A stretch of DNA of 32,000 nt from Nitrosococcus oceani ATCC 19707 (lineage in GTDB: Bacteria > Pseudomonadota > Gammaproteobacteria > Nitrosococcales > Nitrosococcaceae): positions 1,440,001-1,472,000 of the forward strand of contig NC_007484.1 of the NCBI RefSeq assembly GCF_000012805.1, in the 5' to 3' direction. The notes under the pieces were generated by a model. That model was not told the DNA's origin. It saw only the letters and a list, made by a program, of their open reading frames with translations, and did no database searches. The position numbers and the translations under genes are program-made. Below are positions 13,901 through 17,084 of this stretch, in pieces; position 1 is the first letter of the stretch, and each line of letters begins with the position of its first letter.

Positions 13901-13911
13901 TCTTACCTTGG

Positions 13912-13946
13912 AAAACGCCTGCTTCTTAGCAGGCGTTTTTGTTTTT
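13912..13946 (+). terminator. Rho-independent terminator of the peroxiredoxin gene
   Basis: AAAACGCCTGC-TTCTTA-GCAGGCGTTTT followed by TGTTTTT; an 11-bp stem plus a T-run. Confidence 0.8.
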
Positions 13947-14058: not shown

Positions 14059-14940
14059 TTATCGTTTGCATTTTGGTTGCCGGCCTTCAGAAAGTGCTTG
14101 CTGGTAGATATCTAGCGCTTGGGGTAAGCGTTGTTCTAGTTCGCTAATGCGGGTTTTCTCAGAAGGATGGGTGGATAGAAATTCAGGTGGTTTGCGTCCA
14201 TCATTAGCTGCCATCATGTTCTGCCACAGTTGAATGCTTTGACGCGGATCAAAACCAGCCTGAGCCATGTAGCGTAAGCCAAGGATATCTGATTCGCTTT
14301 CTTGAGCACGGCTGAAAGGTAGGATAATCCCCACTTGGGCGCCTACCCCCATTAGGGCCATGAGCTGCTGTCCGGTGGCGCTGCCAGGAACGCCCGCCAA
14401 TGCTTGAATGAGTTGAAGGCCAGCTTGGGTAGCGTATTGGGTAGACATGCGAGCATTGGCGTGTTCGGCGATGACATGGCCAATTTCATGGCCAATGACC
14501 GCCGCAAGCTGATCAGCGTTCTCAGCTACTGAAAGAAGACCGGTGTAAATGCCGATATGGCCTCCCGGCAAGGCAAAGGCATTGGCTTGGTCGGCTTTAA
14601 ATACAGTTACTTCCCACTGCTCCCCGTTCTCAAGAGGAGGGACTAGCGGCGTGATAGCATTGGCTACACAGCGTATATAGCGGTTGATTTGCGGATCTTT
14701 TGAAACAGGTGTTTCTTGTTTGATTTGTTGATAAGCTGCCTTTCCCATTTGCGCTATTTGGCTAGAAGGGAAAAACTCCAACTGAGACCGACCTGTGGGG
14801 GAGGTAGCGCAAGCGATCAGCAGAAGTAGGGCTGATAGGCTTAAAAGTTGGAGTTTGCGGCTAAGTCTCGTTCGCTTGTTCCCGACAAGCTCCCTCGCCT
14901 TGCTACAATTCGCGTTTCCACGGAGTCCTTCAGCAGCCAT
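14059..14940 (-). CDS. M48-family Zn metalloprotease, predicted lipoprotein; the present start codon lies inside the right end of the IS
   Basis: It has the HExxH motif AVIGHEIGHVIAEH and the lipobox LLLLIAC. I place the start at ATG 14940..14938, which has GGAGG 6 nt upstream. The 311-aa track start at 14994 overlaps the tnpB coding sequence and was not used. Confidence 0.85.
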   Translation of the reverse strand: MAAEGLRGNANCSKARELVGNKRTRLSRKLQLLSLSALLLLIACATSPTGRSQLEFFPSSQIAQMGKAAYQQIKQETPVSKDPQINRYIRCVANAITPLVPPLENGEQWEVTVFKADQANAFALPGGHIGIYTGLLSVAENADQLAAVIGHEIGHVIAEHANARMSTQYATQAGLQLIQALAGVPGSATGQQLMALMGVGAQVGIILPFSRAQESESDILGLRYMAQAGFDPRQSIQLWQNMMAANDGRKPPEFLSTHPSEKTRISELEQRLPQALDIYQQALSEGRQPKCKR

Positions 14941-15010
14941 AAGCCACCTCCGGTTTGTGTACCCCTCCACGCGCATCACTTCCGGTCCTCCCAACCGTAG
15001 CTAACCTTAA
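14847..15010 (-). ncRNA. Predicted omega RNA (reRNA) scaffold of TnpB; the guide would be the ~16-20 nt just beyond 14847
   Basis: Placement is by analogy: TnpB omega RNAs span the tnpB 3' end and the IS right end. This segment is homologous to the most conserved part of the MITE copies. It contains the hairpin GCTTGT-CGGGA-ACAAGC (14874..14890), which covaries with TTTTGT-GTAGGA-ACAAAA in copy A. The 5' limit is a guess. Confidence 0.4.
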
Positions 15011-16108
15011 AATATTTTTAGCCGCGTTAATATCGCGGTCATGGACTGACTTACAGTCCGAGCAGGTCCACTGCCGCACTTTGAGCGGCATGGCTTTTTG
15101 CACTGCGCCACACGCCGAGCACGTTTTACTGGTCGGCGCCCACCTATCCACTTGCCTAAACGCCCGGCCATACCACGGGGCTTTGTATTCCAGTTGCCGC
15201 TTGAGTTCGTGCATGCCTACATCGCCCAAGGCTTTAGCGATGCGCCGGTTGGCCATCATGCCCCTGACGTTGAGCGTTTCCATGGCAATGAACCCCGCCT
15301 GGCGAATCAGTGCCGTGGTGAGTTTGTGCAACCAGTCCTGACGGGTGTTGCTCACCCTGGCGTGGGCCTTGGCGACCCTTACTCGCTGACGATGCCAGCG
15401 AACGCTTCCCTTGCGCTTGCGGGATAGCCTGCGCTGGGTTTTGGTGAGTAGACGCCGATAAGTGCGTAGGTGCCGTGGGTTGCCTGACTTCCAGCCCTCG
15501 GAGGTCACCACCACATCGCTTATACCCACATCAATACCGATACCGTTTGGCTTTCGCGGTAGGGGTTGGAGGGTTTCCTCGCACATGAACGAAACACAAT
15601 AACAACCCGCGCAGTCCTGGGTGACCGAGACCATTTTGGGTATACCCTGGGGCTTACGAGACCATTTTAAACTGAGTGCCCCAAGCTTGGGGAGTTTAAG
15701 CAACTTGCCCGCTCGATACCTTCCCGCTACCTGGCGTTGGTCAAGTTGATAGCGGATGCTTTGAGCGTGGGCTCTTTTTTTGAAACGGGGATACTTCGCT
15801 CGCCCTGCAAAGAAGTTTTTAAACGCGGTGTCCTGGTCTCTAAGCTTTTGATTGAGTGTGGTCGCGCTGGCCTCTTTTAACCAACCATAGGCCGCCGTCT
15901 TTTTTAGCTTGGTGAGGTGCCCGCTAAAGTCAACGCCGCTAACATGCTTGTCGTGCAGCCGGTATTGACGGCCACGCCAGGTCAGACAGGTGTTCCAGAC
16001 CCACCGGGCATGGCCAAACTCCATCGCGAGTTGCTGGCGCTGGACGCTCGTGGGGTAAAAGCGGAATGTATAGGACCGCTGAAGGGTGGTAGAATCGCAT
16101 TGGGTCAT
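14930..16108 (-). CDS. tnpB: RNA-guided endonuclease TnpB (RuvC triad and zinc finger intact)
   Basis: Typical N-terminus from ATG 16108 (MTQCDSTTLQRSYTFRFYPTSVQRQQL). RuvC residues are present in IGIDVGISD, IAMETLNVRGM and HDRDINAAKNI. The zinc finger reads CSACGAV...CSDC. The ORF-track start at 16300 is a TTG-initiated run through the IS left end. Confidence 0.9.
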   Translation of the reverse strand: MTQCDSTTLQRSYTFRFYPTSVQRQQLAMEFGHARWVWNTCLTWRGRQYRLHDKHVSGVDFSGHLTKLKKTAAYGWLKEASATTLNQKLRDQDTAFKNFFAGRAKYPRFKKRAHAQSIRYQLDQRQVAGRYRAGKLLKLPKLGALSLKWSRKPQGIPKMVSVTQDCAGCYCVSFMCEETLQPLPRKPNGIGIDVGISDVVVTSEGWKSGNPRHLRTYRRLLTKTQRRLSRKRKGSVRWHRQRVRVAKAHARVSNTRQDWLHKLTTALIRQAGFIAMETLNVRGMMANRRIAKALGDVGMHELKRQLEYKAPWYGRAFRQVDRWAPTSKTCSACGAVQKAMPLKVRQWTCSDCKSVHDRDINAAKNILRLATVGRTGSDARGGVHKPEVAYGC

Positions 16109-16289
16109 GGCCTCAATACTCGTCCTATTGGGTCGGTGGCAAGTGGCTAGGGGGTACTGATAATACTGCCTAGCCGCGCTTATTCTACCGCCAATTTTGC
16201 CCGCCGCAGACATCACTTTATGCGGCCCTCGCGATCGATGCGCCACTTCGTTTCGCACGCTCGCTGGGGGGGGTCGTCGTACATCCCTG

Positions 16290-16335
16290 TATTCCTTCAA
16301 CGTTTTTGTTTGAGTTGTTCTGCATATCAGGCTCC
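16290..16335 (-). other. Displaced original 5' end of the M48 gene (SD, ATG and 12 codons) on the far side of the IS
   Basis: The minus strand reads GGAG (16335..16332), a 6-nt spacer, then ATG 16325..16323, followed by CAG AAC AAC TCA AAC AAA AAC GTT GAA GGA ATA. This is in frame with CTT TTA AGC... at 14847 once the IS is removed. Confidence 0.5.
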
Positions 16336-16439
16336 GCGAAGCAGGTAAAAACTTGAATTTGATAAATACCTGCTCGATCTTCTATGTGTCAAGTCATCCC
16401 GGAGGTAATTTAAATGTCCTATTCTTAATAAGATATACT

Positions 16440-17084
16440 ATATTTTTGACTCAAGTACGAGCGTCACTCCGGGCAGCCGAAGGGTTAAGTAACCTGAATT
16501 TGCTGTTTCCCATGATTAGCGCGGTTTCTGAGTTGGAAGAAGCTCTACATATAGTGCGGCGGGCCTATGAAGGACTGGTAGAGGAAGGTGTTCGGGTTAC
16601 TTGGCCTCGGGTAGGGGTCATGATTGAGGTGCCTGCCGCGGTCTATCAGGTGGAAGCGTTGGCGCGGCGAGTGGATTTTCTTTCCATTGGCACTAACGAT
16701 CTTGCTCAATATCTGCTGGCGGTTGATCGCAGTAATGAGCGGGTGGCGGAATTATATCATTCCCTCCATCCGGCTGTTTTGGCCGCCATTCTCACAGTAG
16801 TGAAGGTGGCCCGCCGGCACCATAAGCCCGTTAGCGTGTGCGGCGAGATGGCGGGTGAGGCCACGGCGGCTATATTATTGCTGGGTATGGGGATAGATAA
16901 CCTCAGTCTGACCGCTGGCGATTTACCCCGAATCAAGTGGATAATAAGGAATTTTAGCCAGCAGTATGCGAGGGAATTGCTCGCTCGGGCCTTGCGGGAA
17001 GAAAAACCCGAGCCTATCCATAAAATGTTATGCCAGGCGCTTGATAGCCGAAGGTTAGGGGGTCTAGTACGGGTAGGAAAATGA
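16440..17084 (+). pseudogene. ptsP: 3' remnant (~214 codons) of ptsP, phosphoenolpyruvate-protein phosphotransferase EI-Ntr
   Basis: IFLTQVRASLRAAEGLSNLNLLFPMISAVSELEEA, DFLSIGTNDLAQYLLAVDRSNERVAELY and VSVCGEMAG are colinear with the last third of E. coli PtsP. The GAF, phospho-His and N-terminal PEP-binding parts are missing. The track start at 16353 is a TTG in unrelated AT-rich sequence. Confidence 0.8.

Follow-up and report, generated by a model that had tools for sequence, protein, structure and literature searches.

Outward promoters of insertion sequences have been reviewed (PMC9208149), contiguous transcripts of insertion sequences and genes were described in Amoebophilus (PMC3196728), and IStrons are IS200/IS605-type elements fused to a group I intron (PMC4227781, PMC13521648). 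Here, we analysed a 32,000-nucleotide (nt) stretch of the Nitrosococcus oceani ATCC 19707 genome (positions 1,440,001 to 1,472,000 of NC_007484.1; hereafter, the window), in which a tnpB-only IS200/IS605-type element is inserted in the signal-peptide codons of a gene encoding an M48 metallopeptidase of lipoprotein type. Positions are window coordinates, and the gene and the element are both read on the minus strand. As with insertion sequences that drive downstream genes, the case involves a co-oriented downstream gene reliant on transcription through or out of the element. By contrast, the described co-transcripts come from insertion sequences upstream of intact genes; the present element interrupts a coding sequence, and both the start codon and part of the signal peptide would have to come from it. 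Like the IStrons, the element belongs to the TnpB family and is able to occupy a host gene without necessarily destroying it. However, IStrons splice themselves from the mRNA, whereas no group I intron was detected in this element and the proposed rescue is a new translation start in a signal peptide that is cleaved off. The possibility that the element is itself an IStron was rejected, as no Rfam family, group I introns included, matched either strand of 14700..16450 at E<=1.

The element occupies 14848..16298 (1,451 bp), in the same orientation as the M48 gene. The boundaries were set by aligning the copies of the element in the genome with their flanks, and by the empty site of Nitrosococcus watsonii; copies were searched for in the organism's own genome (3,481,691 + 40,420 bp). 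The similarity shared by the copies starts at GAAGGAATACAGGG (16298), where the conserved block of all of them begins, and stops at ...GCCGCAAACTCCAA (14848). The left boundary is therefore 16298/16299, and on the right the final element base is 14848 and the first flank base 14847. In N. watsonii C-113, whose M48 orthologue (ADJ28125) is 97% identical, the site is uninterrupted, with ...GCGGAGCCTGATATGCAGAACAACTCAAACAAAAACGTT running directly into CTTTTAAGCCTATCAGCC... The flanks of this empty site are ...AAAAACGTT and CTTTTAAGCC... (also given as ...ATGCAGAACAACTCAAACAAAAACGTT and CTTTTAAGCCTATCAGCC...). The empty site holds each flank once (AAAAACGTT followed by CTTTTAAG), so that there is no target duplication, and the placement of the element is unambiguous because the bases flanking each junction differ. 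The insertion point falls exactly between codon 9 (GTT) and codon 10 (CTT) of the M48 gene. Along the minus strand, the order is a ptsP C-terminal remnant (on the opposite strand), a short AT-rich spacer, GGAG and ATG 16325 with the eight codons that follow, tnpB, and the body of the M48 gene to 14059.

These results agree in most respects with an initial annotation of the window made from the sequence alone, which had proposed a simple insertion in the M48 gene and had claimed that removal of the element would restore an open reading frame (ORF) with its own Shine-Dalgarno sequence and ATG. The uninterrupted N. watsonii locus bears out both proposals, and there the region 5' of the element (the Shine-Dalgarno sequence and the flank to 16299) adjoins the gene, as had been expected of an element-free genome. 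The right boundary had been placed correctly at 14847/14848. The left end had been placed at 16290 or, alternatively, at 16295, and the true junction lies 9 nt or 3 nt further out, respectively. The claim that the joined gene is in frame holds nonetheless, because both offsets are multiples of three. The codons GAA GGA ATA (E-G-I), which had been taken as native, belong to the element and are absent from the N. watsonii site. Thus, of the alignment predicted for a relative lacking the insertion, the contiguity of the flanks was found but GGAATA as gene sequence was not.

The same junction with an intact ORF, identical in sequence, was present in four further N. oceani assemblies (GCA_000155655.1, GCA_000740745.1, GCA_000740735.1 and GCA_007990675.1) and in a contig of run SRR22137118; the whole element was present in GCA_000155655.1. 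A search of metagenome contigs gave no match to the empty junction and none to the occupied junction.

Before the insertion, the gene had a conserved lipoprotein start. The native Shine-Dalgarno sequence GGAG (16332..16335) lies 6 nt 5' of the native ATG and is identical in the element-free N. watsonii. The orphaned start and codons 2-9 (16299..16325; ATG 16325 CAG AAC AAC TCA AAC AAA AAC GTT, encoding MQNNSNKNV) correspond to the beginning of ADJ28125, MQNNSNKNVLLSLSALLLLIAC, and these bases had all been read correctly in the initial annotation. On the other side of the element, the native hydrophobic core and lipobox LLSLSALLLLIAC (14809..14847; Cys codon 14811..14809) are identical to N. 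watsonii at the DNA level, and the native N-terminus reconstructed from the empty site is MQNNSNKNV-LLSLSALLLLIAC. The N-termini of the orthologues in N. halophilus (MRNNLNKSL...; MRNNLNKSLLLSLLSLLLLAAC) and N. wardiae (MRNQLNKNL...; MRNQLNKNLLLSLFSLLLLAAC) are alike and show the same arrangement of n-region, hydrophobic region and lipobox, so that the native start is conserved in three other species. The earlier prediction that the joined product resembles a lipoprotein with a lipobox is thus matched by a native protein in each of them, and none of these three has an unrelated N-terminus, which would have spoken against it. The orphaned start now heads a 35-codon ORF (16218-16325), MQNNSNKNVEGIQGCTTTPPSERAKRSGASIARAA, ending at TAA 16220..16218 inside the left end of the element; if the native promoter and Shine-Dalgarno sequence work, this 35-codon peptide would be translated upstream of tnpB.

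The mature metallopeptidase (14059..14808, stop codon TAA 14061..14059) is intact, matches PF01435 (Peptidase_M48) with 142 bits and retains the HEXXH zinc site as HEIGH (14490..14476). Comparison with N. watsonii gave 18 synonymous differences and 9 non-synonymous ones; all 9 of the latter lie in the C-terminal part, without obvious excess on the N. oceani side and with HEIGH intact. The M48 domain with HEXXH and, in the native form, the lipoprotein-type signal peptide are shared with LoiP/YcaL and BepA of E. coli. However, the NCBIfam scores (81 of 365 bits for LoiP and 118 of 570 bits for BepA) are far below the cut-offs, and the protein is a family member that is not assignable to LoiP or BepA by those cut-offs. 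The gene was found in all six of the other genomes of the family searched, and the N. oceani genome holds two further M48 paralogues of the BepA size class.

In the present arrangement, the M48 frame runs back 31 codons into the element. A Shine-Dalgarno sequence GGAGG (14951..14947) is followed by a 6-nt spacer and by ATG 14940 (14940..14938), and this start overlaps the tnpB stop TGA (14932..14930) within ATGGCTGCTGA; all of these bases are as initially reported. No in-frame ATG, GTG or TTG lies between 14940 and the hydrophobic core, and the earlier in-frame starts (TTG 14994, GTG 14979, ATG 14976 and GTG 14970) are all inside tnpB. ATG 14940 is therefore, as had been claimed, the only in-frame start upstream of the core and outside tnpB. 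The element-encoded n-region MAAEGLRGNANCSKARELVGNKRTRLSRKLQ (14848..14940) has 31 residues and a net charge of +6, in agreement with its earlier description as very basic, and its codons join in frame to the native hydrophobic core and L-I-A-C lipobox. The 293-amino-acid product from ATG 14940 exists as an NCBI/UniRef entry. The native and the chimeric forms both carry a basic n-region, LLSLSALLLLIAC and the L-I-A-C lipobox matching [LVI][ASTVI][GAS]C; judged from sequence, the product has the features expected of a bacterial lipoprotein and predicted substrate of signal peptidase II.

Several features place the element within the IS200/IS605 class, with which it shares the lack of inverted ends and of a target duplication, insertion 3' of a short fixed motif, and a structured right end that overlaps the 3' end of tnpB. 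There are no terminal inverted repeats; the ends GAAGGAATAC... and ...AAACTCCAA, compared directly, are not inverted copies. At the 24 left-end junctions in the genome, the bases preceding the element follow a CNTT consensus (C at -4 in 22 of 24, T at -2 and at -1 in 20 of 24 each; position -3 is any base, mostly A or G), and CGTT (16299..16302) lies directly 5' of the left end at the M48 locus. The target motif of ISDra2 is TTGAT. The element differs from ISDra2 in this motif, in having no transposase gene and in the lack of any obviously cognate one in the genome, but its TnpB is alike in length and fold class, with the catalytic motifs kept (PDB 8H1J, 8EXA).

The tnpB gene (14930..16108) encodes a predicted RNA-guided nuclease of 392 amino acids that keeps the RuvC D-E-D residues and the zinc ribbon. 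The protein matched HTH_OrfB_IS605, OrfB_IS605 and Cas12f1-like_TNB in Pfam and guided_TnpB in NCBIfam (318 bits, cut-off 100), and aligned over its full length with the ISDra2 TnpB structures 8h1j/8bf8/8exa (E ~6e-71). In the alignment with the best PDB chain, 9yyg_A, the motifs GIDVG, AMETL and HDRD are kept. A TldR-type nuclease-dead regulator was considered and rejected, as the catalytic D, E and D motifs are retained. Upstream, the tnpB frame stays open as far as the very start of the left end (a 456-amino-acid ORF from TTG 16300, and 455 amino acids in an 84%-identical copy); the family models nonetheless align TnpB from the Met at 16108.

There is no gene for a Y1 (HUH) transposase, TnpA, inside the element, which makes it a tnpB-only, non-autonomous element of the IS1341 type. 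A tblastn search of the genome gave 36 tnpB-like pieces (29-100% identical), two of these loci beside an intact Y1 gene. The genome's two intact Y1 genes adjoin tnpB genes that are 29% and 35% identical to that of the element, and no cognate transposase is evident because both adjoin only such distant tnpB genes. The search of the genome with 14800-16400 revealed two copies that were 98% identical, three that were 84-85% identical and others at 80% and 76%, as well as many short left-end-like pieces. The left end (16109..16298) is non-coding, 190 nt long and kept in the full copies and in many short ones. The comparison of copies took in C1:2892277-2893728, 2561890-2563340 and 3140177-3141625. 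The M48 copy is identical to C1:2892277-2893728 along its first 1,300 nt but departs from it at 24 positions in the final 150 nt; this final stretch of ~150 nt shows no difference from C1:3140177-3141625, a copy otherwise 85% identical. The copies are mosaics, and the pattern suggests recombination or gene conversion between them.

The right end (14848..15005) overlaps the last 25 codons of tnpB. A consensus fold made from 13 copies in three species holds 43 pairs, 11 of them with compensatory changes. The element-borne Shine-Dalgarno sequence is part of it: a hairpin with the AUG at its loop has a stem made up of the last two G of GGAGG and codons 2-3, and this hairpin covaries (in alignment columns 65-72, 7 sequences have C-G and 5 have U-A). 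Single-sequence folds of both ends were not better than those of shuffled sequences, and only the alignment-based fold of the right end was informative; the left end was folded as a single sequence (as DNA) only, while the right-end helices show compensatory changes. The right end is probably made into RNA as the guide-RNA (omega-RNA) scaffold of TnpB, and its hairpins may, in addition or instead, be those bound by the transposase; Rfam holds no family matching 14700-16450.

In the TnpB mechanism, the guide lies in the flank just beyond the right end. The position of the guide at this locus would accordingly be 14832..14847, and the predicted guide, CTTTTAAGCCTATCAG, corresponds to M48 codons 10-15. 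This sequence has one perfect match in the genome, none with one mismatch and two other sites with two mismatches. At the occupied locus the perfect match is preceded by CCAA and not by CNTT, so that the occupied locus would escape cutting; the guide would match the empty site, CGTT followed by CTTTTAAGCC..., exactly, and a restored empty site would be cut.

In each of the nine copies of the genome that have a right end, the frame from the Shine-Dalgarno sequence and ATG continues without a stop down to the final base (two of the nine contain an in-frame insert of 27 nt). A fusion would therefore result from any co-oriented insertion between codons, an event of about one in three, and the arrangement at the M48 gene is real but not statistically remarkable. 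The idea that the right-end ORF is a portable start module under selection was weakened by several results. Two N. watsonii copies whose tnpB is intact no longer have the open frame (one has lost an unpaired A and the other contains a stop), and other copies lack the ATG or end in TAA. Differences between the right-end peptides of the copies are mostly non-synonymous while the stems covary, and a second reading frame of the right end is nearly as open. On these grounds it is the RNA or DNA structure, and not the coding, that seems to be conserved, and the start is most plausibly a by-product of the right end, one that would become usable upon landing between codons of a co-oriented gene.

Of the initial interpretation, the insertion, the restored ORF and the available start are borne out, while survival of the gene and its transcriptional and translational coupling to tnpB are predictions. 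Transcription may start at the native promoter, inside the element, or at both, and the transcripts would run through the terminator-free element, by way of tnpB, into the M48 gene. The tnpB stop lies 8 nt past the AUG, in the hairpin region, and terminating ribosomes would therefore unfold the hairpin and restart at 14940. The pre-lipoprotein would have a long basic n-region followed by the native hydrophobic core and LIAC lipobox; export by Sec, lipidation and cleavage by signal peptidase II before the Cys would remove the chimeric leader and leave the mature enzyme unchanged. Since signal peptidase II would remove the whole element-encoded part, an insertion at this position could be tolerated. 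Transcripts bound by TnpB or processed to guide RNA would be lost as M48 message, and because the guide-RNA scaffold is probably formed by the same RNA, each transcript would be subject to competition between guide-RNA formation and M48 translation. A putative native promoter, with a -35 TTGACA (16387..16392), an 18-nt spacing and a poor -10 TATTTA (16368..16363), can be read upstream of the native start, and its bases are also found upstream of the gene in N. watsonii.

On balance, we regard continued expression of the M48 gene as somewhat probable. The support for read-out is indirect: a simple scan detected no terminator-like site on the coding strand inside the element, and a relative of the element, described below, lies directly upstream of tadA. 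The occurrence of the gene in all six family genomes searched, the intact ORF shared by the other N. oceani sequences and the 18 synonymous against 9 non-synonymous differences also count in favour of a gene in use. Against expression stand the Shine-Dalgarno sequence and the AUG themselves, which belong to the conserved covarying hairpin and could be hidden by folding or by TnpB binding. The n-region, with 31 residues and a net charge of +6, is far longer than the native one of 9 residues. The intact M48 frame proves little because the copy is very recent; with no difference from another copy over 1,300 nt, an intact ORF would be expected even in a dead gene. For the same reason dN/dS (the ratio of non-synonymous to synonymous substitution) was set aside as a test of function, since a copy identical to other copies is uninformative. 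The insertion shared by the N. oceani assemblies is also weak evidence of tolerance, as these are 100% identical here. A simple promoter scan found no promoter on the minus strand, the candidate TTGACA included. Two published data sets do not extend to this gene: the M48 protein is not listed in the N. oceani proteome supplement of PMC9723733, and M48/Ste24p is not among the entries listed for the microarray table of PMC3772326.

The main rival explanation is silencing, in which the native start was severed, the element's AUG stayed locked in the scaffold or under TnpB, the M48 frame survives only because there has been too little time for decay, and the insertion was fixed in the nearly clonal N. 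oceani by drift or hitch-hiking, with other M48 proteins perhaps covering the loss. The youth of the copy (without difference from one copy along 1,300 nt, and from a third along the final ~150 nt), the hairpin, the uniformity of the N. oceani assemblies and the lack of a predicted coding-strand promoter all fit a silenced gene, and the two BepA-size paralogues could provide the cover. However, the gene occurs in every genome of the family searched, the element contains no terminator, the insertion is in the one phase that keeps the Shine-Dalgarno sequence and ATG in frame, and read-out very probably occurs from the related copy directly upstream of the sole tadA of its genome. Silencing is quite possible, although we do not hold it to be the probable outcome.

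The two other explanations have much less in their favour. Use of only an internal ATG (MGKAAYQ..., 229 amino acids) would give a cytoplasmic protease without signal peptide, and a 229-amino-acid version is indeed present in NCBI nr for N. oceani and N. watsonii. Its listing for N. watsonii, which has the full native lipoprotein start, marks this entry as an annotation habit; moreover, such a protein would be missing the conserved lipobox together with the initial 20 residues of the mature enzyme, which are conserved across the family, and we give this explanation hardly any credence. The gene might instead be restored in part of the population by precise excision, an on/off switch that would be opposed by TnpB cutting the restored CGTT-plus-guide site. 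Excision of IS200/IS605 elements is seamless, two intact Y1 transposase genes are present in the genome, and the predicted guide matches the restored site exactly. Nevertheless, both Y1 genes adjoin tnpB genes only 29-35% identical, the five other assemblies or contigs all show the occupied junction, and no empty-site sequence was found in the metagenome contigs, which makes such a switch very unlikely.

Other copies provided a wider view of the right end. Of 16 copies with a right end, from three species, we counted 8 situated within the first 10 codons of a co-oriented gene or <=55 nt upstream of one; a rough calculation, as opposed to a computed null, would put the share at ~4% if positions were random and at ~20% if they were random but intergenic. 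The neighbours are the M48 gene, a HicB-like gene (after codon 6), an antitoxin-like gene (6 nt) and a VOC-family-like gene (55 nt); yihY-like (39 nt) and PEBP-like (26 nt) genes in N. watsonii; and tadA (5 nt) and a gene for a 135-amino-acid protein (44 nt) in another genus. In both copies that lie inside genes, the phase is the only one allowing read-through. The second of them is an 84%-identical copy (C1:1669789-1671240) in the same orientation as its host gene, behind a CATT motif and after codon 6 of the HicB-like antitoxin gene (MLIEYI before the element and EEALNRAHYEM... after it). The N-terminus of this gene was confirmed against homologues, and the fusion is in frame, the second such case in the genome. 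As proof of translation the HicB-like case fails, as the adjacent HicA-like toxin gene is frameshifted. In the other genus, a 73%-identical relative with intact tnpB (L066:1501-2952, reverse strand) lies 5 nt upstream of the tadA ATG and splits a TAATG overlap with the upstream gene. This tadA is the only orthologue in its genome. Because tadA is essential in E. coli, read-out from this related right end very probably occurs.

These cases suggest a pattern of insertion at 5' ends that is not established here. It is conceivable, although we consider it doubtful, that TnpB-only elements often carry an outward ribosome-binding site and AUG at the tnpB stop, within the guide-RNA scaffold, and that with terminator-free read-out they are tolerated at the very 5' ends of host genes in the same orientation, even essential ones, whose expression would be tied to tnpB translation and would compete with guide-RNA formation. 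If true, this wider pattern would matter more than the M48 locus, whose interest, taken alone, is as a curiosity in the annotation and genome evolution of a model marine nitrifier.

The insertion itself is of an ordinary kind but is instructively placed. It provides a clean natural example of how a transposon with an RNA-guided nuclease may reside in a conserved gene without much cost: the interrupted part of the lipoprotein is one that cleavage removes in any case, and the end of the element offers a replacement start. Should the gene indeed be expressed like this, the amount of product would be tied to translation of tnpB and in competition with guide-RNA production, and transposon activity would be linked directly to a host envelope protease.

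The surroundings of the locus also showed minor features. The ptsP remnant (16353-17084, plus strand) contains only the PEP-utilizers_C domain. The remnant and the spacer also lie 5' of the M48 gene in the element-free N. watsonii, so that the truncation of ptsP is older than the element and unrelated to it. Near 16403-16415, the N. oceani sequence is ~12 bases longer than that of N. watsonii. At the other end of the M48 gene, a terminator-like hairpin (13911..13940; listed by the terminator scan on the plus strand only) lies between the convergent M48 and peroxiredoxin genes and, with its palindromic stem, could serve both.

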